From positions 53,621-117,620 of the forward strand of contig JBCLLY010000001.1 of the NCBI GenBank assembly GCA_039738415.1: a stretch of DNA of 64,000 nucleotides, in the 5' to 3' direction. The DNA is from Candidatus Levyibacteriota bacterium (lineage in GTDB: Bacteria > Patescibacteriota > Microgenomatia > Levybacterales > GWA1-39-11). A model generated the notes under the pieces. That model had not been told where the DNA came from. It saw nothing but the letters and a program-made list of their open reading frames with translations, and did not search any database. Both the position numbers and the translations under genes were made by a program. This document shows positions 3,868-52,683 of the stretch, piece after piece (the stretch's first letter is position 1; every line of letters starts with the position of its first letter).

Positions 3868-3870
3868 AAT

Positions 3871-4857: not shown

Positions 4858-4858
4858 A

Positions 4859-6199: not shown

Positions 6200-6279
6200 T
6201 AAATCAACATTAATGTATTTTGGTAAGTTTTGTCAATTCTCTTTTTATGAGTTTTTCTGATATCATAGACTAAATTTGT

Positions 6280-6624: not shown

Positions 6625-6641
6625 AGGCTAGAAGCTAGAGG

Positions 6642-7367
6642 CTAGTAACTTACAAGTTTTACAATATCAGCGTCTTTTCTTAATTTCTCTATCCATGTTG
6701 TATATTGAGTTTGAAGTTTTTGCTGTTTTAACTGCTCTCTGAGCTGATTTCTTGTTTCCTCTTCGTTTTCAGCATTTGCCAAAAGGTCAGGATTTGCGCT
6801 AACAAATTCGTTAAATTCCTCGTCACTTACTTTCGTATTTTCGCTAAGCATTTTTTCAACTACAATCTGAATTCTTAGCTCTTGCGTAAATTCCTCTGAA
6901 GTTAATCCTTGAGCTTCTAATATCTGCTGGAAATTCTCTTCATTTCCACTACTTACCTGCTTAATAATTTCTTTTCTCTTAGTATCAACTTCTTCCTGTG
7001 TTGCGCTCAAGTTTTGCTTTCGTGCTTCCTGAAGAATTAATTTGCGGTCAACTAATCTAGTTATAACCTCTGCGCCGTGCTGTTTTTCTAATTCTCCAAT
7101 AATCGCAATCCTAGATACAGGCTCTCCATTTACAAGTGCTGCTATAAATAATCCTCTATTTATAAATAGAACAATTCCCAGTAATACCACACAAACTATT
7201 CCAATTAGAATATATCTTGTCTTTTTGGGAAGTACTTCTAATTTAAAAGGATTTAACCGAAACTTATCTCCTGCTTTAGAGAGGATTGGTACTAAAGACT
7301 TTGCTGCTGTTTTTATAACAGTGCTTGTTTTTTTTGCAGAACCTGTCGTTTTCTTTGCTGTAGCCAT
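6642..7367 (-). CDS. membrane-anchored SurA-N-like chaperone/PPIase-family protein
   Basis: N-terminal TM helix followed by coiled-coil-rich SurA_N-like region; 241 aa. Confidence 0.35.
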   Translation of the reverse strand: MATAKKTTGSAKKTSTVIKTAAKSLVPILSKAGDKFRLNPFKLEVLPKKTRYILIGIVCVVLLGIVLFINRGLFIAALVNGEPVSRIAIIGELEKQHGAEVITRLVDRKLILQEARKQNLSATQEEVDTKRKEIIKQVSSGNEENFQQILEAQGLTSEEFTQELRIQIVVEKMLSENTKVSDEEFNEFVSANPDLLANAENEEETRNQLREQLKQQKLQTQYTTWIEKLRKDADIVKLVSY

Positions 7368-7438
7368 GAGAACTAGTATAGATAAAATAAATCAAAAAAA
7401 CAATAGTGAATTATTACATTCAAACTTATACCTAGTAA

Positions 7439-8122
7439 CTATTCGCATTCGCTTACAATAGTATTTCCTAAAAACTTAATTTCATAAGTTGCTTTTTTAA
7501 TTGCGATTATTTGATAAGGATTTGTAAGCGCCTCAGTTACGATACAGCTATCACCAGGAATAGTCTCATTCACCATAAATTCTATTCTATCCTCAGTAAC
7601 TTCTATTTGCTTTAAGCCAACTGAATAACCCCCCGATGGCTTTTGCCCCATAATAACAGCAATAACCGTTTTCTCATTAAAATCAACGTCAGGGACAATT
7701 CCGCTTTCACCAAAAAGCACGTCCCATTCTTCCGGTGAATTTATAATGTAATTTCCTCGAGGAAACTGCAGGTTTATCTCGTTCGTCCCCTTTTTTATCT
7801 GTATTATCTCCAGGGGAGGAGTTTTGGTACTTTCAACAAAAGTCTTTTCTTTTACCTCGCACTGTCTGGGATAACTTTCCATAACAGCCCCTCCGACAGA
7901 AATACATTCTTCAAAGGAGGTTATCGAATTTCTTTTTATATTGTTAAACCCAAGATATAAAATGAATAGTGTAACTAAAAACACTCCAGATATGGCACCG
8001 TAACCTACGTGTCTTCTTCTTGAAACTTTTCTTGTAATTTTTTTTGGAGCTTTTGAAGCTCTCTTCTTGGGCATTAAGTAAAGTGTATCACAGGAAATGG
8101 TGGATGGTAAATAGCCAGCCAC
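7439..8122 (-). CDS. membrane-anchored protein, possible PrcB_C domain
   Basis: N-terminal TM segment; C-terminal ...TVIAVIMGQKPSGGYSVGL... resembles PrcB C-terminal domain. Confidence 0.3.
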   Translation of the reverse strand: MAGYLPSTISCDTLYLMPKKRASKAPKKITRKVSRRRHVGYGAISGVFLVTLFILYLGFNNIKRNSITSFEECISVGGAVMESYPRQCEVKEKTFVESTKTPPLEIIQIKKGTNEINLQFPRGNYIINSPEEWDVLFGESGIVPDVDFNEKTVIAVIMGQKPSGGYSVGLKQIEVTEDRIEFMVNETIPGDSCIVTEALTNPYQIIAIKKATYEIKFLGNTIVSECE

Positions 8123-8198
8123 ACATCGCTACGTTAGGACTTTAGCGGGCGGGTGAATTGTGAATAGGTTTCGAACTCAAACTAAAAGGGTTCAATAT

Positions 8199-8225
8199 TG
8201 TATAATATACTTGTGAGCGAGGGAG
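8199..8225 (+). promoter_or_regulatory. extended -10 (TGTATAAT, 8199-8206) and Shine-Dalgarno GAGGGAG (8219-8225) for the downstream CDS
   Basis: Read directly from the sequence. Confidence 0.4.
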
Positions 8226-8233
8226 ATGTTGAT

Positions 8234-9049
8234 ATGGGAATAGAAGCTTCTGGGGAATTTGCGGGTTTTTCTAGAGAAGATCTTGAATTAAAGCCCCAAT
8301 ACCCGGTTATTGTTCCGGCCGGCTTAAGAGATAGTGAATTAATGAAGCAAAGACCAGATGGCCCCATAATATTTGTAGATTCGCGTGATCCAAATACAGC
8401 AACTGTAATTAATCAAGACACCTGGGGTCCAAAACTAAAAAGAGATGGAAGAGCCGAAACTATCGCAATATCAAGCATTGCACTAAGACGCTTTGCAGCT
8501 ATTATTCTGCACACCTCTCCCAGAACTCCTGAAGATTCGCACGATAAAACTATTGAAATTCTTTCTGGCCTATTAAAAAAACCCAACGATGCTATCGCAA
8601 ATCAACACCTTGGGGTTATTGCAGTTGTTGAAGACCAAGGTAGTGACACGAGAACCGGCTGGCGAGAAGATGGGCTAAGAAAACATGGTATCATTATAGA
8701 CAGAAGGGGTGGTAAACAAGCGGTTTTTCAAAGCGGAGACTACACCATAAGCATGGGAAGGGTTGCTAAAAAAACTATTCTCCCAGAGCATCTTAAAGCA
8801 GATCCGCAGTCAAAAGATGTTAAGGAAAAAAGAGAACCAGGCGATGTTATTGAACTACCTACTACTTGCGGAGATTGCGGGCAACACCTTAAAGAAAAAT
8901 ATTACGAAAAATCCGGCAGACACGCAGTGCTATTAATACGTCAGGTTGAATGCGATAATAAAGCACATAGACGGGGGCCGAATGTAATTAGTAATATTTT
9001 TATCAGGACCTTGAGACCATTGGATAAAAATCCGAATCCAAAACCTTAA
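8234..9049 (+). CDS. hypothetical protein with C-terminal Cys-rich zinc-ribbon-like segment (CGDCGQH...CDNKAH)
   Basis: The ORF track start (TTG 8198) precedes the promoter-like element. ATG at 8234 has a good SD 8 nt upstream. Confidence 0.4.
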   Translation: MGIEASGEFAGFSREDLELKPQYPVIVPAGLRDSELMKQRPDGPIIFVDSRDPNTATVINQDTWGPKLKRDGRAETIAISSIALRRFAAIILHTSPRTPEDSHDKTIEILSGLLKKPNDAIANQHLGVIAVVEDQGSDTRTGWREDGLRKHGIIIDRRGGKQAVFQSGDYTISMGRVAKKTILPEHLKADPQSKDVKEKREPGDVIELPTTCGDCGQHLKEKYYEKSGRHAVLLIRQVECDNKAHRRGPNVISNIFIRTLRPLDKNPNPKP

Positions 9050-9906
9050 TCATCCTCCACAGTCAAATCCAGATAAATCCTGCGGTTTGTTGCTATCTCT
9101 AGTTCTCGTCTGCTCATAGAACCTATTTCTTTAATCTTACTCCCACCTTCACCAATAATCATTTTCTTATATTTTTTAGGGGCCAGAATTCTTGCCTTTA
9201 TATAAGTTAAATCCTTTTTCTTTCTGTTTTTTATCTCATCGACTACAACTCGAATTACATATGGCAGTTCGCGTCTGAGCCTCAGAAATGCTTTTTCCCG
9301 GATAAGCTCCTCGATAAATAAATTAGAGCTTATATTTAAAGCTTTATTGGGCATTTTTTCCAGATCAAATAATTTTCCCCCCTCAGGTAGCTTTTCAAAA
9401 ATCCAATCGATTATTTGATTTATATTTTCACCTTTTAGGGCTGAAACATAAACGATATCCTCAAATTCGTCTTCCAAAAATTTATATTGCTCTGAATAAT
9501 TTTTTTCTCTCTTATCAGTCTTGTTAAATACCAAAAGTTTTGGGATAGCAATTTTTCTCAACACTCCCAGGACTCTATTTTCTTCAAGTCCGCGCGCGCG
9601 AGTTGGGTCTATTACATAAACAACAGCATTTACTTCATCAGTTAGTGCGTGTTCTGCCGTAAGATTTATTTCCTTAAGTTTCGGATCATTTGTTTTTGCA
9701 AAAATTCCCGGTGTGTCTAAAAATAAAATTTGTCCTCGCCCCGGCTTACTCTTTGTCGCAGGATCTTCATACGCTGCCTGAATTAAAAATTGCGTAGTCT
9801 GGGGCCTGGGAGAAGTTATTGCAACTTTTTGCCCGATAATTCTATTTACAAGAGTTGATTTGCCTGCATTTGGCCGTCCGATAAGAGCTACTGTTCCCGA
9901 TTTCAT
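9046..9906 (-). CDS. era: GTPase Era
   Basis: G1 GRPNAGKST, G-domain motifs and C-terminal KH domain. Start chosen at internal Met (MKSGTVALIG) to avoid overlapping the upstream ORF; the track ORF extends to 9963. Confidence 0.85.
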   Translation of the reverse strand: MKSGTVALIGRPNAGKSTLVNRIIGQKVAITSPRPQTTQFLIQAAYEDPATKSKPGRGQILFLDTPGIFAKTNDPKLKEINLTAEHALTDEVNAVVYVIDPTRARGLEENRVLGVLRKIAIPKLLVFNKTDKREKNYSEQYKFLEDEFEDIVYVSALKGENINQIIDWIFEKLPEGGKLFDLEKMPNKALNISSNLFIEELIREKAFLRLRRELPYVIRVVVDEIKNRKKKDLTYIKARILAPKKYKKMIIGEGGSKIKEIGSMSRRELEIATNRRIYLDLTVEDD

Positions 9907-9907
9907 T

Positions 9908-10639
9908 TTAAACCCCAACCTCCTCTCTATATGTTTTTCCGATTTCAAAATATAAATTAACAAATGTGCGCACGCGCGCCTCAGTCACAGAACCGTTTTG
10001 AATTATTTCACCTAATCTTCTGTGCATTTCTGCCAAAGGAATTGCTCTTAATTTGAGGCTTGCGGTAACAAAATAATTGTGCCTATAAGGCAAAACTGAA
10101 GGGAAAAAATCTTCTGCTTCAATTGGCACTTCTATCCTTTTATAATGAAAATCTGAGAAATCTGTTCTACTTATTTCATGCTCCCATTCACCATTTTTAT
10201 CAAAATAATGTATCTTTTCTGAACCAATGACTACCCCTCCATTATTAGGTAGTTTAACTTTAATATCTCTGTCTCTTCCAATCTCTATTGCTGGCAAATT
10301 ACTGACAAGCTTCTCAGTAATTTCAACCTTACTTATTCCATGAGGGGTCGACAATACTGCTTCCTGAAGAAATTCTGCCGTTTGTGGGCTTATTTGAGGA
10401 CGGATATTGCATTGCCAATCAAAAACTTCACCTTTATTATCTACACATCTTGAAAGAGAAAATGAATTCCCCCTCGATGTTCTACCATTTCTAATAATTT
10501 CACCCAAATCAGCTGAGCCTCTTTGTTCAACAATCCAATCTTCACCTAAAATCCTAGCATCTGGAAATCTGGAATCATAGGACACAACAACCATTCCCAC
10601 TTCCCTTGCTCTATTAAAATCTGAAAATTCTGGAGTCAT
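9908..10639 (-). CDS. hypothetical protein
   Basis: 243-aa ORF between uppS and era; no family recognised. Confidence 0.35.
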   Translation of the reverse strand: MTPEFSDFNRAREVGMVVVSYDSRFPDARILGEDWIVEQRGSADLGEIIRNGRTSRGNSFSLSRCVDNKGEVFDWQCNIRPQISPQTAEFLQEAVLSTPHGISKVEITEKLVSNLPAIEIGRDRDIKVKLPNNGGVVIGSEKIHYFDKNGEWEHEISRTDFSDFHYKRIEVPIEAEDFFPSVLPYRHNYFVTASLKLRAIPLAEMHRRLGEIIQNGSVTEARVRTFVNLYFEIGKTYREEVGV

Positions 10640-18841: not shown

Positions 18842-19075
18842 TTATTCTCTATCTATAGGATAGTTTGGGGGATTATTGAGGTAATCTCTGGTCTGAAGAA
18901 TCCTTTTTGCAGCCTTTTTGGGGTCATCTACCTGTATTCCGTGTCCACCCTTAATCATTAAAACTACATCTATGGGCGGTGGGGATTGATTCGTAGGTTC
19001 ATATACATTAATTGTTTCGTCAGCAAGGGGACGCCTTGCAAATGGCATAAGGACGGGCTGTTTGGAAATCCTCAA
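18842..19075 (-). CDS. hypothetical small protein
   Basis: 77-aa ORF only. Confidence 0.2.
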   Translation of the reverse strand: MRISKQPVLMPFARRPLADETINVYEPTNQSPPPIDVVLMIKGGHGIQVDDPKKAAKRILQTRDYLNNPPNYPIDRE

Positions 19076-19847
19076 AAAACCTGAAGCTATAGTATCGTCA
19101 ATATCTACTGCAATAAATTGGCAGCACTTCTGTCCTCTGTCAGTATTTGCCTAACAAATTCAGGCCTTGCGATAGTTCATGAGAAATAAGGTGAGGGTTG
19201 GATTTTTTTGAAGTGAAATCGATTTTCTATTTTTTTATGCCTGATTTGACACTACTTCTCATGAGACGCAAGCTTTTGGCTCAAATACTATCTTGCGTAA
19301 CTTGCTAAGAAAAAGTACACGAATTGTCTTCCTCTCCATCTCAATTTCCTAATAACTGCTGTCATACCCCATCACCCCCTCTCTATTAATATGCAAATAG
19401 CCCAATATGCAAATTTCAAATGGGTCATTTGAATTAATTAACTTGTTAATTTTTATTGATTTCATAATTAATGCTTTAACCTTCTAATCTTTTAATTTTT
19501 AAATCTTTTAATACTGTTCCTCTCCCCTGATCTCTTGATTTACATCCGGTGTTGCAAAACTCTGCTCCATCTCAACCACAAAAAATGAAATCATTAGAAC
19601 GGACACGATAAAGAAAAAAAATATTCTTTTCGGATGCGTGAAAAATTGGCTGTTCTGTTTAAAAGATATTAAAATTCTCATGGATATATCCATTGAATAG
19701 CTTCATTTGAACCTAGTCAAATCGGCTTTCATTTTGCATAATATTGCATATAATTACATAGTATTGTATACTGAAAATTAGAATAATTTTCAGATAGATA
19801 TAATAGTAGAAATACAGTAGATATAAATTGATATTGATATTAAACAA

Positions 19848-20258
19848 ATGGATACGAATAGCAACAACATAAAGGGTAAATATATTCCTTTAGATAAGCT
19901 CGAGATTTATCAGCTTTCACGAGAATTATCGTCTCTCGGATGGAAAGTCTATCAAGTACTTGGAGCGAGAGAAAGAAATATCATGGGTGATCAATTCATT
20001 CGTTCAACTGACTCAGTAGGCGCAAATATTGCTGAGGGTTACAGCAGATTTCACTACTTAGACAGAATAAAATTCTGCTATACCTCGCGTGCGTCGCTTA
20101 TGGAAGCCTCAAATCATTGGCTAGAACTCTTAAAGGAAAGGGGATTAGTTTTAAAAGCAGACTATGATTCTTATATCCTGAATTCGAGACTGTTATCCAT
20201 AAAACTAAATAATTATATAAGCTCTCTTTATAAAACAAGGTCCAAGAATTCACCATGA
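19848..20258 (+). CDS. four-helix-bundle protein (23S rRNA intervening-sequence protein family) copy 1
   Basis: GANIAEGYSRFHYLDRIKFCYTSRASLMEASNHWL signature. Confidence 0.75.
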   Translation: MDTNSNNIKGKYIPLDKLEIYQLSRELSSLGWKVYQVLGARERNIMGDQFIRSTDSVGANIAEGYSRFHYLDRIKFCYTSRASLMEASNHWLELLKERGLVLKADYDSYILNSRLLSIKLNNYISSLYKTRSKNSP

Positions 20259-20302
20259 ATATCTATGTATCAATGAATTTCAATAGTATATCTTAATTTA
20301 TC

Positions 20303-20578
20303 ATGGATAATTTTTACAACGTAAATCAGGCAGCCTATATCATGAAGGTCCACCCTCTAACTATCAGGAGGTATATCCGGGAGGGCAAGCTAAAGGCTGT
20401 AAAGCTGGGAGGAAATGTAAGAATAAAAGAACGTGATCTTCAATCATTTATGAAAGATTTTGAGCCGAGACAACAGGCAGACACCTTATCATTTAGAAGA
20501 ATTATTCAGCAGAAAGAATTTACAACCGCAGACCCATTCCTCCGACTTAAGGGGCGTGCGGCTACTGTGGAACTTTAA
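20303..20578 (+). CDS. excisionase-family helix-turn-helix DNA-binding protein
   Basis: VNQAAYIMKVHPLTIRRYIREGKLKAVKLGGNVRIKERDL matches the MerR/Xis-type HTH_17 pattern. Confidence 0.6.
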   Translation: MDNFYNVNQAAYIMKVHPLTIRRYIREGKLKAVKLGGNVRIKERDLQSFMKDFEPRQQADTLSFRRIIQQKEFTTADPFLRLKGRAATVEL

Positions 20579-20579
20579 C

Positions 20580-20667
20580 CATGAATTATGAATAATGAAG
20601 TAAGAAGCATGAAGTAGGAATTATGAAGCATGAAGCAGGAAGCATGAAGTATGAATAATGAAGCAGG
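20580..20667. repeat. heptanucleotide tandem array (CATGAAG/TATGAAT units)
   Basis: It fills the whole intergenic spacer and runs into the first codons of the next gene. Confidence 0.8.
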
Positions 20668-21040
20668 GAAGATAAAAAATTTTACCGATCTAAATGCATG
20701 GAAATATAGCCATAGTTTGGTTTTAGAAATTTATGAAATTACCAAGATTTTTCCTAAAGAAGAGCAATTTGGACTCACCAATCAAATAAGAAGAGCAGTC
20801 GTATCAATAAGTTCAAATATTGCTGAGGGATTTAGCAGAACTTCCTATAAAGATAAGTCTCATTTCTATTCAATGGCGTTAGGTTCTTTAACAGAGGTTC
20901 AAAACCAACTTATGATTGCGCGTGATTTAGGATACTTTTCAGTAGAAAAGTTCAATGAGTTAATAAAGGTCAGCATTACGGTAAGTAAACTTTTAAATGG
21001 ACTGCTTAAAAAATCAAAAACCATGATTCGTGACTCATGA
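20651..21040 (+). CDS. four-helix-bundle protein copy 2
   Basis: NIAEGFSRTSYKDKSHFYSMALGSLTEVQNQL signature. Confidence 0.75.
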   Translation: MNNEAGKIKNFTDLNAWKYSHSLVLEIYEITKIFPKEEQFGLTNQIRRAVVSISSNIAEGFSRTSYKDKSHFYSMALGSLTEVQNQLMIARDLGYFSVEKFNELIKVSITVSKLLNGLLKKSKTMIRDS

Positions 21041-21078
21041 TTCATGATTCGAGTTTAGGATTTAGAATTTAATTAATT

Positions 21079-21501
21079 ATGGCACTATCTAAAAAAGTAA
21101 TACTTGCCCCCGACTCTATCTATGCGTACATAGACCGTGTGTCTGAAAAACACCAGCAGGCGGTAGCATTTTTCCGATATTTTTCACAAGAGCATTACCG
21201 GCTCTTCATTGATTGCGTAAGTCTAAACAAGGTGTACGAGGACATATATCTTAAAATGAGCCAGGATTTGGCAAAGGATTTCATAAAGATTATAAGTGTC
21301 TCAGATATTAATATAGTCTACCCTGATGAAGGAGAAACAAAGGCAGCAATAAAGGCTTTGATTAATTACCGTACGCTTGATTTAACTTTCTCCCAAGCCA
21401 TTCTTTCAGTTGTAGCAAATAGAAGAAGCATTAATCAGGTGGTTACATTCTCTTATTTGCCTCCATTATTTGGTCTGCAAACGTTCTATTTACCGATATA
21501 G
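21079..21501 (+). CDS. hypothetical protein
   Basis: 140-aa ORF flanked by heptamer arrays on both sides. Confidence 0.3.
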   Translation: MALSKKVILAPDSIYAYIDRVSEKHQQAVAFFRYFSQEHYRLFIDCVSLNKVYEDIYLKMSQDLAKDFIKIISVSDINIVYPDEGETKAAIKALINYRTLDLTFSQAILSVVANRRSINQVVTFSYLPPLFGLQTFYLPI

Positions 21502-21507
21502 AAAGAA

Positions 21508-21633
21508 GAATGCTTCATTCTTCATACTTCATACTTCCTGATTCATGCTTCATTCTTCATACTTCATACTTCCTGATTCATGCTTCATACTTCATGCTTC
21601 CTGCTTCCTGATTCATACTTCATGCTATATATC
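21508..21633. repeat. heptanucleotide tandem array (ATGCTTC/ATACTTC/CTGATTC units; reverse complement of the 20580 array)
   Basis: About 18 units. Confidence 0.85.
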
Positions 21634-21809
21634 AAAAGGTTAATTAAGATATCAATATGTATCGTAATAATGCTAGTTTTGTCAGCAACCCCCGCACCCA
21701 CGGGACTTATCGATCGGGGAATTGGGTGCGGGGCAAAAAAACCACAACTAATTATCTAATTCAATTAGAGGATTTTGAAATGCTATTTATTTTGCTATAA
21801 TTACTTATC

Positions 21810-21881
21810 GCCGTCTTAGCTCAGTGGTAGAGCAGCTGTTTTGTAAACAGCAGGTCTAGGGTTCGAATCCCTAAGACGGCT
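21810..21881 (+). tRNA. tRNA-Thr (anticodon TGT)
   Basis: Acceptor GCCGTCT, D-arm GCTC-AGTGGTA-GAGC, anticodon stem GCTGT/ACAGC with loop UUUGUAA, T-arm TAGGG-TTCGAAT-CCCTA. Confidence 0.85.
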
Positions 21882-21888
21882 CAACAAT

Positions 21889-21944
21889 GTAGAGCATCCC
21901 GCTAAGCGGGACGGGTCGCGAGTTCGAATCTCGCCTCAGGCTCA
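21889..21944 (+). pseudogene. tRNA-like 3' fragment (D-stem 3' half, CCCGCTAAGCGGG hairpin as anticodon arm with TAA triplet, T-arm GCGAG-TTCGAAT-CTCGC, acceptor 3' strand, no 5' half)
   Basis: Read directly; lacks a 5' acceptor partner. Confidence 0.4.
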
Positions 21945-22082
21945 AATTTTGGCAAGCACGACTTGTACTGGGATAAACAGTCCTTCGACAAGCTCAGGAT
22001 TAGAAACAGGTCTAGGGCTTGCCCCGTATAGCCGCCACCGTGAGGCAAAGACGTAGACTTTGCGAACGGGAAGGTTTATGCG

Positions 22083-22107
22083 GGGTTCGAATCCCTAAGA
22101 CGGCTCA
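22083..22107 (+). repeat. 25-bp direct repeat of the tRNA-Thr(TGT) 3' end (GGGTTCGAATCCCTAAGACGGCTCA), about 200 bp downstream of the gene
   Basis: Identical to 21859-21883. Confidence 0.8.
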
Positions 22108-22141
22108 TAAAATTTTCTGCTAAATGGTACTGAAATTCAAA

Positions 22142-22267
22142 ATGAGATGGGGATATTTTTTAACATCTATCCTTGTTGCTGTTATTGTTGGTGTAGTATC
22201 TGGAATTATTGTTGATGGAGAAGATTGGAGAATATACTTACTTGCCGGAGGAGTTTACCCTGAGTAA
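22142..22267 (+). CDS. possible 41-aa small membrane protein (MRWGYFLTSILVAVIVGVVSGIIVDGEDWRIYLLAGGVYPE)
   Basis: Short ORF with one hydrophobic helix. It is below the track threshold and so speculative. Confidence 0.2.
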   Translation: MRWGYFLTSILVAVIVGVVSGIIVDGEDWRIYLLAGGVYPE

Positions 22268-22374
22268 AACCGAAGGGCTGGGACTGATTTTCTGGAAAAT
22301 CTTTATAAATTAAGGCTTGCTCAATTCTTTAAGATATCTTGACGCTTAAACGGCATTAACTGACTAAGAAGTCC

Positions 22375-22405
22375 TTGACATGAGGTGGGGGGGGGAGTGT
22401 TTAAT
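22375..22405 (+). promoter_or_regulatory. sigma70-like promoter TTGACA-19bp-TTTAAT with a G9 homopolymer (22387-22395) in the spacer
   Basis: The paralogous promoter at 23641 has G5 and a 17-bp spacer. Confidence 0.5.
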
Positions 22406-22414
22406 ATATATTAT

Positions 22415-23527
22415 ATGAGAGTTTTTCTGCCTAAAAGATCAAAGAAATCAATTTCGGTCATAGGGTTGATCGTAGTATTAATAAACCTTATGGTATTACC
22501 TCTTTTTGTAAGTCAAGTTGATGCCGGAACTTTTACCAGCCGTACAGTAACCATCTCTGACTCACGGGCAGGAAACACCGGCACAACGTATGATTTTGCC
22601 TTTACCGTTGTCGCAACCACAGCAATCAAGCAGTGGAACATTAAGTTTTGTACTGTTACAGGAGCCTACGATGACGCTTGCACAACACCAACCGGAATTG
22701 TAACAACCGGCGCAGCCATCGGATCAGACAACGTAACCGGCTCCGGCAGAACTAACACGTTTGGAGGAAACGGTGTTTTACAAACAGTTGTTACCACTCC
22801 TTCTACCCAAAGCCCGACAGGGGTTACTGTTTCTTACACCGGAATCACAAACCCAACAACAGCCGATACCACCTTCTTTGCCCGTATCATTACATATTCA
22901 GATCCGGGAACAACAGAGATTGACAGTGGGACAGTTGCCGCTGCCATTTTAACCTCCACCTCAATTGCCGTAACTGCCGCCATTGACTCAGCGCTTACTT
23001 TTACTGTGGCAGCTGTCAATAGCGGAGGAACCGTCAATGGAGCAACCACCAATATTACCACCACTGCTATCCTCATTCCTTTTGGGACGCTTTCTTCCGG
23101 TTCAACCAAAATTGCCGCTCATGACTTGACAGTGGAAACAAATGCTTCTGGCGGATACACGACCACTGTCAAGGCAACCGCTACTCCACCTTTAGTTAAT
23201 GGCTCAAATAATATTGATGTCTTTACCGGTGCTAATTCAAATCCAACAATTTGGAGTTCACCGGGTGGTACTGCCAACTCTGTTAATACCGGATTCTTTG
23301 GGTATACCACCAATGATGCGACTCTAGGCACAGGCACAGCCGACAGATTTACAGATACGGGTAATGAGTGGGCCGGAACTACCACCTCTCCTTTAGAGGT
23401 TGCCTTTTCCGCAACCGGTGCTTCTTCAGAGACAACAAGGGTAGGCTGGCAAGCTGAGGTTAACAGCATCCAAGCCGCAGGATCATATACCGGAACTGTT
23501 ATTTTAACGACTACGCCAACGTATTAA
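22415..23527 (+). CDS. Thr/Gly-rich secreted surface protein, tandem paralog A (signal peptide; C-terminal ...GSYTGTVILTTTPTY)
   Basis: Start set at ATG MRVFLPKRSKK. The track start GTG 22385 would translate the G tract. About 95% identical to paralog B. Confidence 0.6.
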   Translation: MRVFLPKRSKKSISVIGLIVVLINLMVLPLFVSQVDAGTFTSRTVTISDSRAGNTGTTYDFAFTVVATTAIKQWNIKFCTVTGAYDDACTTPTGIVTTGAAIGSDNVTGSGRTNTFGGNGVLQTVVTTPSTQSPTGVTVSYTGITNPTTADTTFFARIITYSDPGTTEIDSGTVAAAILTSTSIAVTAAIDSALTFTVAAVNSGGTVNGATTNITTTAILIPFGTLSSGSTKIAAHDLTVETNASGGYTTTVKATATPPLVNGSNNIDVFTGANSNPTIWSSPGGTANSVNTGFFGYTTNDATLGTGTADRFTDTGNEWAGTTTSPLEVAFSATGASSETTRVGWQAEVNSIQAAGSYTGTVILTTTPTY

Positions 23528-23640
23528 CTACGCGTACTATCAGAAAGATCACCAAGCAATTCTAGAACCTTATCCCTGAAGAAACCATAATCATAGCGGA
23601 GAAACTGTATACTATGTGTTGGACACCGTACAAGAAGTCC

Positions 23641-23669
23641 TTGACATGGAGTGAGGGGGAGTGTTTAAT
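23641..23669 (+). promoter_or_regulatory. sigma70-like promoter TTGACA-17bp-TTTAAT with a G5 tract
   Basis: Duplicated with gene B; the same architecture is seen at 49382-49410. Confidence 0.5.
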
Positions 23670-23678
23670 ATATACTAT

Positions 23679-24791
23679 ATGAGAGTTTTTCTGCCTAAAA
23701 GATCAAAGAAATCAATTTTGGCCATAGGGTTGATGGTAGTATTAATAAACCTTATGGTATTACCTCTTTTTGTAGGTAAAGCCAATGCCGACACCCTCAC
23801 AACCCGCAATCTAACCATCTCTGACTCACGGGCAGGAAACACCGGCACAACGTATGATTTTGCCTTTACCGTTGTCGCAACCACAGGAATCAAGCAGTGG
23901 AATATTAAGTTCTGTACTGCTGCGGGAGCCTACGCTGACGCTTGCACAACACCAACCGGAATTGTAACAACCGGCGCAGCCATCGGATCAGACAACGTAA
24001 CCGGCTCCGGCAGAACTAACACGTTTGGAGGAAACGGTGTTTTACAAACAGTTGTTACCACTCCTTCTACCCAAAGCCCGACAGAGGTTACTGTTTCTTA
24101 CACCGGAATCACAAACCCAACAACAACGGATACCACCTTCTTTGCCCGTATCATTACATATTCAGATCCGGGAACAACAGAGATTGACAGTGGGACAGTT
24201 GCCGCTGCCATTCTCACCACCACCTCAATAGCCGTAACTGCCGCCGTTGACCCAGCGCTTACCTTTACTGTAGCTGCTGTCAATTCCGGAACCGTCAATG
24301 GAGCAACCATCAATGTGACGACTTCAACTGCCGTCCTTATTCCTTTTGGGACGCTTTCTTCCGGTTCAACCAAAATTGCCGCTCATGACTTGACAGTGGA
24401 AACAAATGCTTCTGGCGGATACACGACTACTGTCAAGGCAACCGCTACTCCACCTTTAGTTGATGGCTCAAATAATATTGATGTCTTTACCGGTGCTAAT
24501 TCAAATCCAACAATTTGGAGTTCACCGGGTGGTACTGCCAACTCTGTTAATACCGGATTCTTTGGGTATACCACCAATGATGCGACTCTAGGCACAGGCA
24601 CAGCCGACAGATTTACAGATACGGGTAATGAGTGGGCCGGAACTACCACCTCTCCTTTAGAGGTTGCCTTTTCCGCAACCGGTGTTTCTTCAGAGATAAC
24701 AAGGGTAGGCTGGCAGGCTGAGGTCAACAGCATCCAAGCCCCAGGATCATATACCGGAACTGTTATTTTAACGACTACGCCAACATATTAA
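23679..24791 (+). CDS. Thr/Gly-rich secreted surface protein, tandem paralog B
   Basis: 370 aa; tandem duplication unit about 1266 bp. Confidence 0.6.
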   Translation: MRVFLPKRSKKSILAIGLMVVLINLMVLPLFVGKANADTLTTRNLTISDSRAGNTGTTYDFAFTVVATTGIKQWNIKFCTAAGAYADACTTPTGIVTTGAAIGSDNVTGSGRTNTFGGNGVLQTVVTTPSTQSPTEVTVSYTGITNPTTTDTTFFARIITYSDPGTTEIDSGTVAAAILTTTSIAVTAAVDPALTFTVAAVNSGTVNGATINVTTSTAVLIPFGTLSSGSTKIAAHDLTVETNASGGYTTTVKATATPPLVDGSNNIDVFTGANSNPTIWSSPGGTANSVNTGFFGYTTNDATLGTGTADRFTDTGNEWAGTTTSPLEVAFSATGVSSEITRVGWQAEVNSIQAPGSYTGTVILTTTPTY

Positions 24792-24808
24792 GCTAAAAAA
24801 AATTAAAA

Positions 24809-25762
24809 ATGAAAAATTCAAAGTTCAAAATGTTTAGCAAAACTCTTAATCAGAATAAACTGGTAGTAATTGCCTCTTTAGTCGCATCAACTTTGTTCTT
24901 ATCTGTTTTTCTAGGCTTCACGCTCGCTCAAAATACTGTTTCCAGCCAGTCTCTTGAGGTTTCTCCTCCATCACAAGAACTAAGAGCAGATCCCGGGCAG
25001 ACTATTACTGCAAAAGCAAAGGTGAGAAACAAGAGCGCGGAGAGCATAAACATTAAGGTTAGAATTGAAGATTTTACAGCAATTGGTGAGGAAGGACAGG
25101 TGGCTTTAATAGAGAAAGGCCCACAATCTTTAACTTCCTGGACTGTTGTTGAATCGGACACTTTTCCTTTAAAGCCCGGTGAGGCGAAAGAGGTTATCGC
25201 CAAAATTAGCGTACCCAAAGAAGCAGCCGGTGGCAAATATGGTTCTTTTGTCTTTTCAATCGGCGGGGAGGAGGCAGCTCCAGGTACTGCTGCCATTGCT
25301 CAAGAACTGGCCTCTCTTTTTTTAATCAGGATTTCCGGGCCAGTCAGCGAACAATTAACCATAGCCGAGTTTAAAGCACCTGCCTTTTTGGAGTTTGGGC
25401 CCGTCCCCTTTACCCTAAAGTTTCAAAACTCCGGTAATGTCCATGTCAAACCATTTGGGCTTATTAATATCACGGATGTTTTCGGCCGCGTGGTTAAAGA
25501 TGTAGTCGTAAGAGGTGAGACCAATATATTTCCAGGGGCATCAAGAATAGTGACAGTAAGCTACGATGAAAAACTGCTCCTTGGACCATACAAAGCCCAG
25601 GCAGTCTTAAATTTTGGCAGCAAGAATGAATCGATAACTGCCACCACCACTTTCTTTGTTTTTCCGGTTAGAATAGCTGCTGCTGTTCTTCTGGTTCTGT
25701 TCGTCCTTTACATTTCCAGGAAAAGGTTGGTTAAATCTATCAAAGCCTTGTCTGGAAAATGA
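24809..25762 (+). CDS. DUF916/CscA-like cell-surface protein (signal peptide, Ig-like body, C-terminal TM anchor plus KR tail)
   Basis: Architecture: N-terminal signal, ...LTSWTVV..., C-terminal AAAVLLVLFVLYISRKRL. Adjacent to Thr-rich secreted proteins, as in Gram-positive csc/WxL loci. Confidence 0.45.
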   Translation: MKNSKFKMFSKTLNQNKLVVIASLVASTLFLSVFLGFTLAQNTVSSQSLEVSPPSQELRADPGQTITAKAKVRNKSAESINIKVRIEDFTAIGEEGQVALIEKGPQSLTSWTVVESDTFPLKPGEAKEVIAKISVPKEAAGGKYGSFVFSIGGEEAAPGTAAIAQELASLFLIRISGPVSEQLTIAEFKAPAFLEFGPVPFTLKFQNSGNVHVKPFGLINITDVFGRVVKDVVVRGETNIFPGASRIVTVSYDEKLLLGPYKAQAVLNFGSKNESITATTTFFVFPVRIAAAVLLVLFVLYISRKRLVKSIKALSGK

Positions 25763-25786
25763 TACAATCGCGAATTTCGCAGTTGT

Positions 25787-25897
25787 CATTCTGGGGACTC
25801 AGAGCGAAGCGTGGAGGACTCCAGAATCTAATCAGATACGGATTCTGGACACCTGCCCGCAGATGCTGCGCATCAAGCGTTGCAGGCGGGAGCCAGA
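25787..25897. repeat. REP-like palindromic element (GTCATTCTGG...CCAGAATGAC outer inverted repeat with internal CCTGCCCGCA...GCGTTGCAGGCGGG hairpins)
   Basis: Read directly; related copies are dispersed across the window. Confidence 0.7.
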
Positions 25898-25935
25898 ATG
25901 ACGGGGAAGTGCGAAACTTGTAACAATGTTAATTA

Positions 25936-26343
25936 ATGAAACGCTCAAAATTACTATTTCTTATTATCCTCGCGGCAAGCGCAGGATTTGCACTACGCTG
26001 GCTGATTACAAATTTACAAACCAAGCCTGATATAAGTTTAATCCTGCAACAAAATGTAACGGGAGAACAGACCACTGCCGATCAGTTTATCACCTATATA
26101 GACTATGATGGCACTGAGTTTAAACCGGCAGCAGTCACTGTTAAAAAAGGCAACTATATTGCCATTACCAATCAGAGTAAAGATAAGCAGATGTGGCTGG
26201 TGTCTGATAATGCGGATTTAAATACAAAAAGGGGTTATGGGGAAGGTGAGAGGTTGCAACTTACTCTACTCAAAGAGGGTCGTTACATTGTAACCAACAG
26301 GCTTGATACAAAAGCCTCCATAGAAATTGTTGTTGAGCCTTAA
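25936..26343 (+). CDS. small secreted protein
   Basis: Signal-peptide-like N-terminus; 135 aa. Confidence 0.4.
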   Translation: MKRSKLLFLIILAASAGFALRWLITNLQTKPDISLILQQNVTGEQTTADQFITYIDYDGTEFKPAAVTVKKGNYIAITNQSKDKQMWLVSDNADLNTKRGYGEGERLQLTLLKEGRYIVTNRLDTKASIEIVVEP

Positions 26344-26378
26344 CTTTTCCTGTATAATACCCAAACCTATCCTAAAAT

Positions 26379-26900
26379 ATGGCCCAGAGATTAGTTTTAA
26401 CCCTAGTATTTATTACCTTACTCCTCATTCTTACTACAAGCCTGGTGGAGGCACAAGTATTAAGCGTCACTGCTACAGTACCTGTATCTGATGTTTGGGC
26501 AGAGGCTATTGTTAAAAATTCCAAGGTTCTTTCTGTTTGGGACGGACAAGAACTGTCTTATTTTGTTAGAGTCATAGGTCTAGATTATGAAATACTGGAC
26601 AATCATAAAGTCCAACTCCAGGTCTTTTTAGATGATCAACTGGTTACAGCCTTAACCCAAGAGTCTAAAGATTTTACTAAGTTTTCATTTATCCCCAAAG
26701 AAGAAGGTCGATACCACCTTATTTTCACCGATATCACTTGGGATCGTCACATAGAGCTGAAAGAATTAGAATTTGATCAGCCTCGTATTAAGATTTTCAA
26801 TGCTTTAGATACCTTTTTTCTATTGAGTAGTATGTATATTGATGAGAGCGTTCCTAATATTATCAGAACAGCCTTCGTAACAGGAAAACCAACAAAATGA
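26379..26900 (+). CDS. secreted protein
   Basis: Signal-peptide-like N-terminus; 173 aa. Convergently overlaps the next gene by about 120 bp. Confidence 0.4.
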   Translation: MAQRLVLTLVFITLLLILTTSLVEAQVLSVTATVPVSDVWAEAIVKNSKVLSVWDGQELSYFVRVIGLDYEILDNHKVQLQVFLDDQLVTALTQESKDFTKFSFIPKEEGRYHLIFTDITWDRHIELKELEFDQPRIKIFNALDTFFLLSSMYIDESVPNIIRTAFVTGKPTK

Positions 26901-27784
26901 GTTGTGGAATAGATGTAGTCGCCGTTTTCCAGTGAAACTGCAAGCGTAGCTGTATAGATTCCGCCGTAAAGATTGGGAATATCAAAAGCTCTTTGCCAGC
27001 GCCTGATCTTGCCTGGCAAAATAGTTTTTTCCTCCAGTTCAAAGGTTTGTTCTTCTCCGAATAATGGTTTAATAGTTAGAGCTGGTTTGGCACTGAAATA
27101 GTTAAGAGAAGTATTTTTGATCCTGATAGTTGCTCCGATAGGACCCCTTTCATAAATCTTATGGTCAAAATCAAAGGTGACAATTTCAGCCTTATTTTTT
27201 TGATCTTGTACTCCAATATTCGCCAAAGCCAACACCCCTATTTTAGAGCTAACCGGTACGCCTGGGAAGATAGGGGTAAAAAAGATCATGGCATAATAAC
27301 CGCCTAGTGGTACCTTATCAGGCACAGTAATTTGGATAGTAAAATCCTTTGCGGTTTTAGCTGGCAAGATGGCATCTTGGTCGCTGAGGGAAATCCAATC
27401 CATCAGTGGGGAAGCAATGTTTTCTTCAGATATTGTAATACCGTATTCCTCATCAGAGGCGTCAAAGCCTTCAACCGAGGCTCTTAGCGGTAAGGGAGCA
27501 TCAAGCAGGTTTTCTATTTTAACTTGATAATTTTGTTTTGTTCCCGGATCTAACTTCACTTTCAGGATAACCGGAGAAACACGAATCATTTGCTTAACAT
27601 GGGGCTGAACTTTTTCTAAAGCTATCGCTCTATTACTTAATATACTAAAACATATAGCAATAGTTAAAAGTGCACCTGCCCGCAATGCTAGCGCAAGCGT
27701 TGCCCGCCGGCATGCCTTTGGCAATGCCAATGGCGGCCAGGCAGGCGGGAGGTTAAAAGTTAGATACTTCTTCATAATTTTCAA
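26777..27784 (-). CDS. DUF916/CscA-like cell-surface protein (paralog); N-terminal region includes a translated GC-rich palindromic element
   Basis: ...LMDWISLS...GGYYAMIFF..., C-terminal TM plus NRKKVSK. N-terminal PPAWPPLALPKACRRATLALALRAGA is encoded by a REP-like palindrome (about 27655-27745). Confidence 0.45.
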   Translation of the reverse strand: MKIMKKYLTFNLPPAWPPLALPKACRRATLALALRAGALLTIAICFSILSNRAIALEKVQPHVKQMIRVSPVILKVKLDPGTKQNYQVKIENLLDAPLPLRASVEGFDASDEEYGITISEENIASPLMDWISLSDQDAILPAKTAKDFTIQITVPDKVPLGGYYAMIFFTPIFPGVPVSSKIGVLALANIGVQDQKNKAEIVTFDFDHKIYERGPIGATIRIKNTSLNYFSAKPALTIKPLFGEEQTFELEEKTILPGKIRRWQRAFDIPNLYGGIYTATLAVSLENGDYIYSTTHFVGFPVTKAVLIILGTLSSIYILLNRKKVSKALKILIRG

Positions 27785-27799
27785 TTTTTAATTTCTAAT

Positions 27800-27960
27800 G
27801 AGATTGCCACGCTCCATTTCATTCCGCTCGCAATGACAGTAAGTGCGAAAGTTGCCTTTCATAGTCGTCATTGCGATCCGCCAGCTGGCGGATCCTCGCA
27901 ATGACGGGTAAACTCATGATCGCAATGACGAGAGAAGGGAATTGTTTTTTAAAGTCTTGA
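27800..27960. repeat. REP-like cluster (GTCATTGCGA-TCCGCCAGCTGGCGGA-TCCTCGCAATGAC; CGCAATGAC four times)
   Basis: Long perfect inverted repeats. Confidence 0.7.
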
Positions 27961-28049
27961 TTGTTCATAATTTTGCACTTTGAATTCAAACTTTTAACTT
28001 TTAACTTTTAACTTTTTCAGCCAGAGGCTGATCCGCCTTTGGCGGAAAC

Positions 28050-29105
28050 TTAATACACCGGTACTACTACATAGACAACAGTATTAGTATAACTTCCTGC
28101 TCTGGTAGCAGAATCTCCTGTAACACGGTAAGTTATTGTAAATTGCTCGTTTGTTACAGTTGGATCCTCAATAACAGCCGTATGATCTGCTATCGGATCT
28201 CCAGGCGCTGATGTAGTAAATCCTGCATGTTTTGGCCCTCCAGTGGTAAACCTGTCTGCTGTGCCTCCCGCCAGATTATTATCATCAGTTGTATAACCAA
28301 AACCGGTTCCCGACCAGACAGCAGGGGCGGAATTAGGACTTGCAAAAGCTGGGATAGTATTTGATCCAGAGGTTAAAAGTCCTGTATTTCGACCATATAT
28401 AGTATAACCGTTATAGGCATTAGTCGAGGTGGTTAAAACTGTTGTTTTGGCACTGTCGGTAAAAGAGTTTCCGGAATTGAGGTTGGCAAAGGTGAGAGTT
28501 GCCGAGGATATGCCAAAAGTAAGCGAGGGGTTAGAAGTGGCAATGGCAGCAGATTCAGGTCCATACCCGCTTTCAGTAAAATTGCCCCTTTTGGCCTTCC
28601 CTTTTATCTCATAAGTAGTGTTGGCGTTCAGGGTTCTGACAAATTCACCCGTTGCCCCACCCCAGTCAGTATAGGTTTGCCAATCCTCTGTTCCTAAAAC
28701 TGTACCAACAGTATTATCATTTTGAACGTATTTAGTAGTAACAAAATCATCATCAGAGATAGCAATAGCAAATAAGGCGTCCGTGGGGTTACTCCCATTA
28801 TCGATAACGAACTTAAGCCTGTCATAATTGGTGGCCGGATTGGACAAAGTTGGCACTGGCGGAACATTGGCCTGCATAGTAAAGATTAACCCTGTACCAG
28901 CCTTAAAGCTTGTCGAACTTAATTGTCCAAACTCCAATTCCCCTGCTACCCCGAATAAGGAAAAATTAGTCGAATTAAAACCATCCGTTCCCCCACTGCC
29001 AAAAGTATAGTCTTTTAATTCGTAGTTAGTGCTGGTCGGCCCGGCAAAAACAGATAGAGGAAAGATTAATACAATTATAAAGAGTAAGATCAGTAGTTTA
29101 GCCAT
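28050..29105 (-). CDS. Thr/Gly-rich secreted surface protein (same family as 22415/23679; C-terminal ...GSYTNTVVYVVVPVY)
   Basis: Signal peptide and shared C-terminal block W..GFGYTT.D..L.GGTADRFT... Confidence 0.5.
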   Translation of the reverse strand: MAKLLILLFIIVLIFPLSVFAGPTSTNYELKDYTFGSGGTDGFNSTNFSLFGVAGELEFGQLSSTSFKAGTGLIFTMQANVPPVPTLSNPATNYDRLKFVIDNGSNPTDALFAIAISDDDFVTTKYVQNDNTVGTVLGTEDWQTYTDWGGATGEFVRTLNANTTYEIKGKAKRGNFTESGYGPESAAIATSNPSLTFGISSATLTFANLNSGNSFTDSAKTTVLTTSTNAYNGYTIYGRNTGLLTSGSNTIPAFASPNSAPAVWSGTGFGYTTDDNNLAGGTADRFTTGGPKHAGFTTSAPGDPIADHTAVIEDPTVTNEQFTITYRVTGDSATRAGSYTNTVVYVVVPVY

Positions 29106-29162
29106 AAATCAAAGATTAAAAATCAAATCTCAAAAATAAAAATCAAAAATCAAAAACTATCA

Positions 29163-29537
29163 TCATCTGTTTTTCTTCATAGTGATGATACTTGCCGCTA
29201 AAATATTGGCTAACTGTTCTACTTCATCAATTAAAGGGTTGATTTTTTCTGATGGAACCCTTTTTGTTTCTTTTAACAAAGTCAGCCAGTATTTTGCTTC
29301 ATTGGCACTTTTTAATGCATGAGTGTAAAAATTAATATAATCTCTTTTACTTGAGGCTGACTTTGCTTCGGTGATATTTGCCCCAATTGAAGTTGCACTT
29401 CTTATCAACTGATCTGCTATTACCCAACAAGAACGCACACTCGGCAAACTATCTGTTAATTCTATTACCTGAATTGAAAATTTAAAAGCTCTATCTAAAA
29501 AATTTTCTTTCTCTTTTTTTTGGTCTTTTATGTCCAT
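29163..29537 (-). CDS. four-helix-bundle protein copy 3
   Basis: IGANITEAKSASSKRDYINFYTHALKSANEAKYWL. Confidence 0.7.
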   Translation of the reverse strand: MDIKDQKKEKENFLDRAFKFSIQVIELTDSLPSVRSCWVIADQLIRSATSIGANITEAKSASSKRDYINFYTHALKSANEAKYWLTLLKETKRVPSEKINPLIDEVEQLANILAASIITMKKNR

Positions 29538-29570
29538 TTTTGAGATTTAATTTTTGATTTTTTATTTTCT

Positions 29571-30506
29571 TTATACCTTAGTATAGTATATTGACCGTCC
29601 TTTACCATAAGCAAAAAGAAGTCCCAATCCCGCTAAGCGGGATAAATCCCTTGAAGCAGTAACCTGGGCGACCTTAAACATTGTTTGGACTTGATGGTTG
29701 GTTATCTTGACCTCCGGAGATTCAAGGTAGCGTAATATCTCTCTTTGTCTTTCATTAAGCTGTAGGAGTTTAGTCGGCAGGGAAGAAGAAAACCGCCGTC
29801 TGACAATTTTATCCTCCATCTTGACTAAATGAGTCAAAACTACTTGGGTAAAATCTTCTAAAAAGGGGGTTAAAGCAGACTCGCTCTGCAAAAGTAAGCT
29901 TTCACTGTGGGCGAATAAGTCTTCCAATACTAAGAAACCTCTCATATCATAACCATGCTTGTATAAAAATAGATAAGAGGTGAGAATAGCAACACGTTCG
30001 TTACCTTGGCGGAATACCGGATCTTTGAGGAGTTTGATAAAGGCTAAACCGGATTGAATTACTGGTATTTCTTGACCAGCTTGGAGGTATTTGAGAAATT
30101 CTTCCAACTGTACAATAAAGTTTTCAAAATTGAGAACCCTTCCCAGAGTTGGTGCACAGGCTATATTGTAAAGCGCTAGTATCTCCTCAGATGTCACCTT
30201 CGACTTTGAAGCAATCCAGGTATGATGCAGAAAATCCAGGGCTTTTTTATAATTTATTAGTTCCTGCTCCTTAGTAGTGGTTTTTTTGGGATTATAAGTG
30301 GAAAGCAGATTAGCAATCTCTGTTTTGGTGATTGGCTCCTGTGTGGTTGTTGGTAATGAGTGAAGTCTATCTATCATTGTTTCCCATCTAAAGACAAGCT
30401 CGTCTTTTGGTGAGATAGGAGTTACAAGTAACTTCGTTCTCAGTAGGTCAATATCATCAATGGTTTTTTTTAACCTTGGTGAGAAACTATAACTTAAATT
30501 TAACAT
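29571..30506 (-). CDS. Fic-like protein with degenerate active-site motif (DPVFRQGNER instead of HPFx[DE]GNGR) and C-terminal winged-helix
   Basis: By-eye motif alignment. C-terminal ...VTASRDLSRLAGLGLLFAYGKGRSIYY is wHTH-like. Contains a CCCGCTAAGCGGG hairpin in frame. Confidence 0.3.
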   Translation of the reverse strand: MLNLSYSFSPRLKKTIDDIDLLRTKLLVTPISPKDELVFRWETMIDRLHSLPTTTQEPITKTEIANLLSTYNPKKTTTKEQELINYKKALDFLHHTWIASKSKVTSEEILALYNIACAPTLGRVLNFENFIVQLEEFLKYLQAGQEIPVIQSGLAFIKLLKDPVFRQGNERVAILTSYLFLYKHGYDMRGFLVLEDLFAHSESLLLQSESALTPFLEDFTQVVLTHLVKMEDKIVRRRFSSSLPTKLLQLNERQREILRYLESPEVKITNHQVQTMFKVAQVTASRDLSRLAGLGLLFAYGKGRSIYYTKV

Positions 30507-36876: not shown

Positions 36877-37209
36877 ATTTAATTTTCCTCCTTGTAATAA
36901 TCTTCTTTCCCAACGGACGCGGCCGCTACCGTCTTTTACACCAAAATCTAACCCCTGCCTAACCCATTCATGATTAATACCCTCTCAAGTTCCGTAAACC
37001 CCGCACCCACAACCTCACCACTCGCCTCGCTGAAGCTGGGGCGAAGCCAAGTCAGACTTGGCTTCGCCTAAGCGAAAAGTCAATCCCATAGAGTGAATCG
37101 AGAAGAATTAGTCCCTGAGAAATTGGCAAGGAAATTGGCAAGGACGGTCCTTGACATACCCATATGTTGCGGGGGGAAGAATTGAAAATTTCAAATTAAA
37201 AATTAATGC

Positions 37210-52600: not shown

Positions 52601-52683
52601 AAAATTATTTGACAATGTTCACTATTTATGCGCAAAATAAGTCAGGCCTTCCGCCAACTGGCGGATTTAGGTTTTATTTTTAT

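Follow-up and report, generated by a model that had tools for sequence, protein, structure and literature searches.

A Poly-G Tract of Differing Length in the Promoter of a Probable Pam-Type Pilin Gene of a Levyibacteriota Bacterium: A Candidate Phase-Variation Switch

The 64,000-nucleotide stretch of Candidatus Levyibacteriota DNA analyzed here (contig JBCLLY010000001.1, positions 53,621 to 117,620; hereafter the window) contains two tandem genes, A (22415-23527, + strand, 370 aa) and B (23679-24791, + strand), which encode predicted secreted two-domain beta-sandwich proteins, probably pilins of the Pam type. The promoter region of gene A holds a run of nine guanines (G9, 22387-22395) between a consensus -35 hexamer and the start codon. 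In a second, nearly identical assembly the same run counts eight. We consider it somewhat probable that this tract is a slippage-prone spacer homopolymer that switches or grades the transcription of pilin A. More tentatively, we propose that a sub-clade of Microgenomatia keeps a poly-G tract as a contingency element in the promoter that drives the operon of its major Pam-pilus subunit, and that in the present case A is switchable while B became locked after duplication. An earlier note on this DNA had interpreted the tract as a candidate contingency locus. As far as sequence comparison goes, the length difference between the two assemblies and the recurrence of the tract in other species support this interpretation.

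Genes A and B share 94% of their DNA sequence (blastn and MAFFT) and 92% of their protein sequence. The duplicated unit comprises promoter and coding sequence: homology starts about 49 bp before the ATG, at 22366 in A and at 23632 in B, and ends 3 bp past the stop codon, which leaves about 100 bp of unique DNA between the copies. The earlier note had put the pair at about 95% identity including 60 bp of upstream sequence; the near-identity holds, but the shared upstream segment is only about 49 bp long. Within the promoter segment of A (22366-22414, + strand), the -35 hexamer TTGACA (22375-22380) is followed by the 19-bp stretch tgaggt-G9-agtg and by an AT-rich -10 region (22400-22407) with the candidate hexamers TTTAAT (22400-22405) and TAATAT (22402-22407), the latter region being defined by direct reading and by alignment of ortholog promoters. 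The corresponding segment of B (23632-23678, + strand) contains TTGACA at 23641-23646, the 17-bp spacer tggagtgaGGGGGagtg (tggagtga-G5-agtg), and the candidates TTTAAT (23664-23669) and TAATAT (23666-23671). In both genes TTGACA and ATG are separated by 32-34 bp. Read directly from the sequence, these coordinates agree with the TTGACA...TTTAAT promoters and with the spacers of 19 bp (A, G9) and 17 bp (B, G5) as first described.

The tract of B is interrupted (GAGGGGG, 23653-23659, with G5 at 23655-23659) and 2 bp shorter than that of A. This block reads like a G7 tract in which one G-to-A change cut the longest run to G5 and fixed the spacing. A lone G9 in 64 kb is only mildly unusual: dinucleotide-shuffled sequences contained 0.15 such runs on average, and 14 of 100 shuffles contained at least one. 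The combination of TTGACAT with G5 within the following 8 nt is found twice in the window, against 0.03 expected occurrences. A search of Rfam returned no match at the tract or the promoter.

The second assembly was reached through the closest database protein (P0001, which corresponds to gene B). Contig JBCLLX010000011.1 of assembly GCA_039731645.1 (L001) is collinear with the window. Positions 2884-10591 of this contig match positions 22083-29791 of the window over 7,709 bp with no mismatch and one gap, and this sole gap is the tract, which is G8 in L001 and G9 in the window. Positions 1-2908 match 18976-21883 with one mismatch. The B promoter with its G5 is the same in both assemblies. In total, the two sequences differ by the G tract, by one substitution, and by a 224-bp insertion beside a tRNA gene; no other homopolymer in the 10.6 kb common to both carries an indel, despite many shorter homopolymers. 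A lone difference at the G tract is what a hypermutable tract predicts. Length polymorphism, on which the contingency interpretation depends, was looked for between these two assemblies and found, with flanks that are identical over 7.7 kb. A repeat that differs in length between very close strains with identical flanks is one mark of a contingency locus, and the two assemblies display this behavior. Slippage is expected of homopolymers or short repeats of about 7 nt or more, a range that includes G9 of the window and G8 of L001. Further assemblies were sought by exact-protein look-ups with A, B, their alternative starts, and the 310-aa gene that lies downstream; these found GCA_039731645.1 at most, and the exact 39-nt promoter pattern had no match in Joint Genome Institute (JGI) metagenome contigs. 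The contig that holds the window has a length of 133,768 bp, as seen from cluster members P0122 and P0123.

The insertion that distinguishes the two assemblies comprises about 224 bp (21884-22107), present in the window and absent from L001. A 25-bp direct repeat of the tRNA-Thr(TGT) 3' end (21859-21883 and 22083-22107) flanks it, and tRNA-like fragments are found inside, including the T-arm/acceptor-like sequence GGTCGCGAGTTCGAATCTCGCCTCAGGCTCA. Rfam assigned no family to the insert beyond a weak match to the tmRNA 3' end. The segment looks like a small integration or a duplication of a tRNA fragment at a tRNA 3' end.

Promoters of orthologous genes in related Microgenomates provide a second line of evidence. 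We compared 47 loci from species-representative genomes, 16 loci from metagenome contigs, and several more that were found by exact-protein look-up. Of 63 orthologous loci, 40 have an exact TTGACA no further than about 90 nt from the start codon, against 0.04 expected per such interval. The hexamer lies 28-36 nt before the start codon and is conserved across the family. From this conservation we take TTGACA to be a strong -35 element. The sub-clade closest to A and B, marked by the N-terminus M-x-x-F-L-P-K/R-x-S, has promoters in which TTGAC(A/G)T or TTGCAAT always precedes a G-rich block. The ortholog L002, with 71% amino-acid identity, reads TTGACA-tga-G7-aactac-TATAAT with 6 nt to the ATG (spacer 16). 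L074 contains TTGACG-t-G7-aaaagctgc-TTAATA (spacer 17), and L070-73 contain TTGACG-t-G5-aacctgcttac-TATAAT (spacer 17). L052 reads TTGCAA-t-G9-aaactgc-TACTTT with 6 nt to the ATG (spacer 17), and L053 has the same frame with G11 (spacer 18). L052 and L053 have kept long tracts at a DNA identity of only 86%. Interrupted G-rich runs are found in L068 (GGGAGGGGAAGG) and in gene B of the window (GGAGTGAGGGGG, spacer 17 with TTTAAT). With the same -10 candidate, the spacer of gene A measures 19 bp in the window (G9) and 18 bp in L001 (G8). As a negative control, the G5 allele of L070-73 is the same in four contigs from three independent samples.

In L002, L052, L053, L068, and L074, a TAnnnT-type hexamer is located 16-18 bp past the -35 element, with exactly 6 nt left to the start codon. 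If this hexamer is the -10 element, the tract must be in the spacer, and leaderless transcripts are implied for these five orthologs. The promoter placement of the earlier note is backed by the conservation of TTGACA in 40 of the 63 loci and by the G tract of the closest sub-clade, which always lies between the -35 element and the AT-rich -10 region. The window and the compared loci together (445,778 bp) contain 12 G or C runs of at least 7 nt. Five of these runs occupy the promoter position, and every run of at least 9 nt is among these five. Recurrence of a G tract at the same promoter position across species is far beyond chance. The tract is conserved in presence and position but not in length, decays in some copies through interruption, and is stable in its short G5 version. 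This pattern is the one that characterizes contingency loci, as judged by comparison of the promoters.

For the -10 element in A and B there are two overlapping candidates. With TTTAAT, the spacer would be 17 bp in B, 18 bp in A with G8, and 19 bp in A with G9, and 9 nt would separate the hexamer from the ATG. With TAATAT, the corresponding spacers would be 19, 20, and 21 bp, and the distance to the ATG would be 7 nt. Two predictions hold on either reading. The tract would lie between the -35 element and every possible -10 element, with a spacer in A that is 1-2 bp longer than that in B, and each slippage event would move the A spacer by 1 bp.

These considerations suggest how the switch may work. 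A guanine gained or lost by slipped-strand mispairing in replication would change the distance between the -35 and -10 elements of A in 1-bp steps, and this change, which would be reversible by further slippage, would raise or lower transcription of pilin A. The A mRNA may be leaderless or nearly so because the ATG follows 7-9 nt past the -10 candidates, a distance that would also place the transcription start at or close to the start codon. Gene B would be effectively locked and constitutive because its tract is shorter and broken by the G-to-A change. Since the interval between A and B shows no terminator-like site, and a chaperone-like gene follows 17 nt past B, the B promoter could keep B and the downstream chaperone-like genes expressed whatever the state of A. 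In the resulting population, cells would differ in whether pilin A enters a Pam-type surface pilus, or in how much of it does. That the affected gene encodes a probable secreted pilus subunit, the usual target class for repeat-length switches, also speaks for this proposal.

Several points weigh against it. The -10 element of A and B is ambiguous: position 2 of TTTAAT is not the A that is nearly invariant there, and spacers of 19 bp in B and 20-21 bp in A, as follow from TAATAT, would be odd even for the supposedly locked-on copy. The tract sits between the family-conserved TTGACA and an AT-rich region 7-15 nt before the ATG, where a consensus promoter scanner reported neither the A nor the B promoter. 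This silence can be attributed to the same two features, because TTTAAT fails the rule for A at position 2 and TAATAT sits at 19-21 bp. Both A alleles seen (G8 and G9) are on the long side, so that the optimal allele is not among them. The -35/-10 rules that we applied may not be those of the RNA polymerase of the Candidate Phyla Radiation (CPR). The difference in tract length is seen in two assemblies and could in principle reflect a consensus miscall at a homopolymer. Finally, the sister sub-clade and most of the family do not contain a G tract, which means that the tract is not needed for pilin expression. Members of the sister sub-clade (L054, L067, L069) have an A-rich spacer instead. One of them, L069, carries a (TA)9 repeat between the -10 region and the pilin ATG (approximately 950-1000), a different simple repeat in the same kind of promoter.

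The tract could also be hypermutable with little consequence. In this case, it would be an inherited G-rich spacer that expands and contracts neutrally, or that serves fine-tuning, with no selected ON/OFF state. We regard this explanation as unlikely, even though interrupted or short versions in B, L068, and L070 are expected if homopolymers arise and decay neutrally, the tract is missing from most of the family, and the overall ratio of nonsynonymous to synonymous divergence between A and B (dN/dS = 0.48) does not indicate diversifying selection. Neutral drift does not readily account for tracts of at least 7 nt that five lineages have kept although their proteins diverge by up to about 35% and their upstream DNA cannot be aligned, nor for the fact that runs of at least 9 nt are found nowhere else in the 446 kb. 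Furthermore, the total spacer length stays at 16-18 bp in several orthologs while the G count ranges from 5 to 11, which implies selection on the spacing around the tract.

Alternatively, the G-rich block may be a conserved recognition or structural element, such as an activator or repressor site, in which variation of length is incidental. The block always begins 1-6 nt past the -35 element, a conserved (A)nCTGC often comes next, and the C-stretch of Bordetella acts together with an activator-binding "fim box". However, a binding site should conserve its length, whereas lengths of 5 to 11 are seen here, and strains that are otherwise identical do not share one length. Since no candidate regulator was identified either, we think that this explanation is improbable.

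We give even less credence to a sequencing or assembly artefact, according to which the tract has a single true length and one of the two metagenome-assembled genomes (MAGs) shows G8 or G9 through a consensus error at the homopolymer. Homopolymers are indeed the commonest site of consensus indel errors, and exact-sequence searches gave no assemblies other than the two compared. Yet such an error would have struck this one homopolymer and none of the many shorter ones in the 10.6 kb that the assemblies share, and independent assemblies of other species contain long G tracts of varying length at the same site. Last, it is very improbable that the real promoter lies further upstream and that the G run is transcribed and acts either in the 5' untranslated region, where it could be a stability element or resemble a Shine-Dalgarno sequence (GGGGAG), or in frame from GTG 22385: with G9 the reading frame is open from this GTG, and GGAG ends 17 nt before the ATG, but the TTGACA at 28-36 nt before the start is conserved family-wide and good -10 hexamers follow downstream of the tract in L002, L070, and L052. 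The two specific roles of a transcribed tract were rejected. The 17-nt gap between GGGGAG and ATG is too long for a Shine-Dalgarno sequence; a translational frameshift in a reading frame that runs from GTG 22385 through the tract is incompatible with the N-terminus MRVFLPKRS, which is conserved from the ATG, and with G8, which breaks the frame.

A and B begin with a typical signal peptide (MRVFLPKRSKKS..., a hydrophobic core, and ...VDA|GTF). Pfam contains no family that matches either protein, and a profile search of PDB sequences found nothing meaningful. The sole NCBIfam match of A is to NF058581 (CPR_Pam_pilin_C; E = 5e-6, model positions 6-148 of 148). The score of 26.6 bits is below the curated cut-off of 55 bits, so that A does not reach the threshold of this family. 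The same model matches 34 of 38 aligned relatives with a best E of 3.6e-11. An AlphaFold2 model of A based on an alignment of 38 sequences (pLDDT 82) predicts two beta domains (residues 43-179 and 232-369), a low-confidence linker (185-192), and a strand (194-200). A Foldseek search against the PDB (April 2026 copy) returned generic adhesins with two immunoglobulin (Ig)-like domains at TM-scores of at most 0.25 and no Pam entry. The signal peptide, the two Ig-like beta domains, and the C-terminal match to Pam pilins mark A as a predicted surface or interaction protein. Homologues of A and B are found in hundreds, and those with informative record names come from MAGs of Microgenomates or Patescibacteria (such as Gottesman-, Roizman-, and Levyibacteria), which agrees with the restriction of Pam pilins to the CPR (Saccharimonadia, Microgenomatia). 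Many Third Party Annotation (TPA) MAG records with this CPR-specific pilin family (L004-L050) are titled "uncultured Gammaproteobacteria" or "Pseudomonadales". Judging by gene content and homologues, these titles are evidently wrong.

Pam pili were described in 2026 by electron cryomicroscopy in Ca. Mycosynbacter amalyticus (Troman et al., bioRxiv 10.64898/2026.03.03.709456). Pam pilins contain a signal peptide and two domains, an N-terminal beta-sandwich and an incomplete Ig-like domain at the C-terminus with a linker (donor) strand between, and assemble by donor-strand exchange; their operon also encodes membrane-anchored chaperones similar to PapD and FimC as well as more pilin-like proteins, and homologues are found only in the CPR, mainly in Saccharimonadia and Microgenomatia (bioRxiv 10.64898/2026.03.03.709456). 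On the basis of the sub-threshold NCBIfam match and the context of the locus, A and B are probable Pam-type pilins, an assignment that the curated threshold does not certify.

Divergence between A and B is distributed as a mosaic: synonymous divergence (dS) is approximately 0.54 in codons 30-50, 0.23 in codons 170-225, and 0.02 elsewhere. This distribution suggests that gene conversion or recombination keeps the copies alike over most of their length, with two patches that remain different. The dN/dS value does not support diversifying selection between the paralogs.

The genes around the pilin pair are in keeping with a pilus locus. Located 17 nt past B, a gene (24809-25762, + strand) encodes a membrane-anchored Ig-like protein of 317 aa with a signal peptide, a transmembrane helix at the C-terminus, and a weak WxLIP_PGBD match, which is a candidate for a PamC/D-like chaperone. 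The order of a pilin gene followed by a gene for about 310 aa is kept in L002, L070, and L074. Next is a gene for a small secreted cupredoxin-like protein (25936-26343, + strand), which orthologous loci also keep downstream of the pilin and chaperone genes. The pilus locus has a second, convergent module (26777-29105, - strand), which consists of a second chaperone-like protein (26777-27784, - strand, 335 aa), again with a signal peptide, a transmembrane helix at the C-terminus, and a weak WxLIP_PGBD match, and of a third, divergent Pam-like pilin (28050-29105, - strand; NF058581 with E = 1e-8, N-terminus of PamT with E = 2e-12). TTTTTGA-like repeats are found upstream of the third pilin gene. 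On either side of the pilus locus lie genes for four-helix-bundle proteins of PF05635 ("23S rRNA intervening sequence protein"), three in all (19848-20258, 20651-21040, and 29163-29537 on the - strand), and one of the three is similar to bAvd.

Elsewhere in the window, the earlier note had pointed to a third related motif followed by G7 at 37141-37165. The motif GTCCTTGACAT is found at 37147-37157, and the run that starts 13 nt later is G6 (37171-37176); a search for G7 misses it, and no open reading frame (ORF) follows downstream on the + strand. The motif lies between two convergent genes, an ORF with a LytR_C domain (+ strand) and a Vut_1 transporter (- strand). With G6, a different spacing, no recognizable -10 element, no downstream gene, and similarity limited to an 11-mer, we rejected this site as a related switch. 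It is probably unrelated to the promoters of A and B. In the same region (37120-37180), GTCCTTGACAT is preceded by two copies of the direct repeat GAAATTGGCAAG, and the motif could be the promoter of a small RNA or a remnant. Another repeat cluster (52449-52518 and 52105-52349) occupies the intergenic region upstream of a 533-aa ORF (52576-54177) with no Pfam family. It contains five copies of GTCATCCTGAA and, between them, two C8 runs (52460-67 and 52500-07), which are the only other G or C runs of at least 7 nt in the window, as well as a tandem array with a 35-nt period (14 + 21). This cluster could be another variable region.

Homopolymers that set promoter spacing are an established means of phase variation, and what is new here is the taxon and the pilus system. 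The closest analogue is provided by fim2, fim3, and fimX of Bordetella, which code for paralogous major subunits of fimbriae of the chaperone-usher type, assembled by donor-strand exchange, and which each have a G/C homopolymer in the promoter. In the fimX promoter, C7 and C8 result in an approximately fourfold difference in transcript (PMC1891110). Like the tracts described here, the Bordetella tracts differ in length between paralogs and between strains. They are longer, however (C10-C19), and are located between the site of an activator (BvgA) and the -10 element rather than after a consensus -35 element. In contrast to the Bordetella fimbriae, the system proposed here belongs to a CPR bacterium and a Pam-type pilus with no outer-membrane usher. 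In Neisseria meningitidis, a poly-G tract in porA and a poly-C tract in opc lie between the -35 and -10 elements and set high, intermediate, or no expression of surface proteins. These are outer-membrane proteins and not pilins, and their switching is experimentally established, while for pilin A we infer it. In Haemophilus influenzae hifA/hifB, a (TA)n repeat, and in the vlp genes of Mycoplasma hyorhinis, a poly-A tract, control the -35/-10 spacing of fimbrial and surface lipoprotein genes, respectively, and each copy in these gene families has its own tract. The type of repeat differs from the one described here (TA dinucleotide or poly-A instead of poly-G), and the hif promoter is divergent and bidirectional.

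With the Pam pili of Ca. Mycosynbacter amalyticus, the locus would share CPR-restricted signal-peptide pilins with two beta domains and genes beside those for membrane-anchored chaperone-like proteins. A matches the family model with a score below the NCBI cut-off. The paper on this pilus reports no promoter, homopolymer, or phase-variation feature (bioRxiv 10.64898/2026.03.03.709456). Full-text literature searches identified no paper that ties phase variation to Patescibacteria beyond incidental mentions.

The genomes of CPR bacteria are tiny, and a life attached to host cells is generally assumed for these organisms. To our knowledge, hardly anything has been reported on how their attachment structures vary or are regulated; among hypervariation systems, only diversity-generating retroelements are commonly discussed for them. 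If the proposed switch is real, it would be the first case of phase variation by repeats to be described for the CPR, and the probable host-attachment pilus of these ultra-small episymbionts would be phase-variable. Pilins A and B would be flagged as functionally distinct. The value of this finding would be in the new taxon and system and in its testability, and not in a new principle: the length of the tract would be a marker of pilus states in natural populations that can be read from metagenomic reads. CPR bacteria would then use the same bet-hedging logic as mucosal pathogens.

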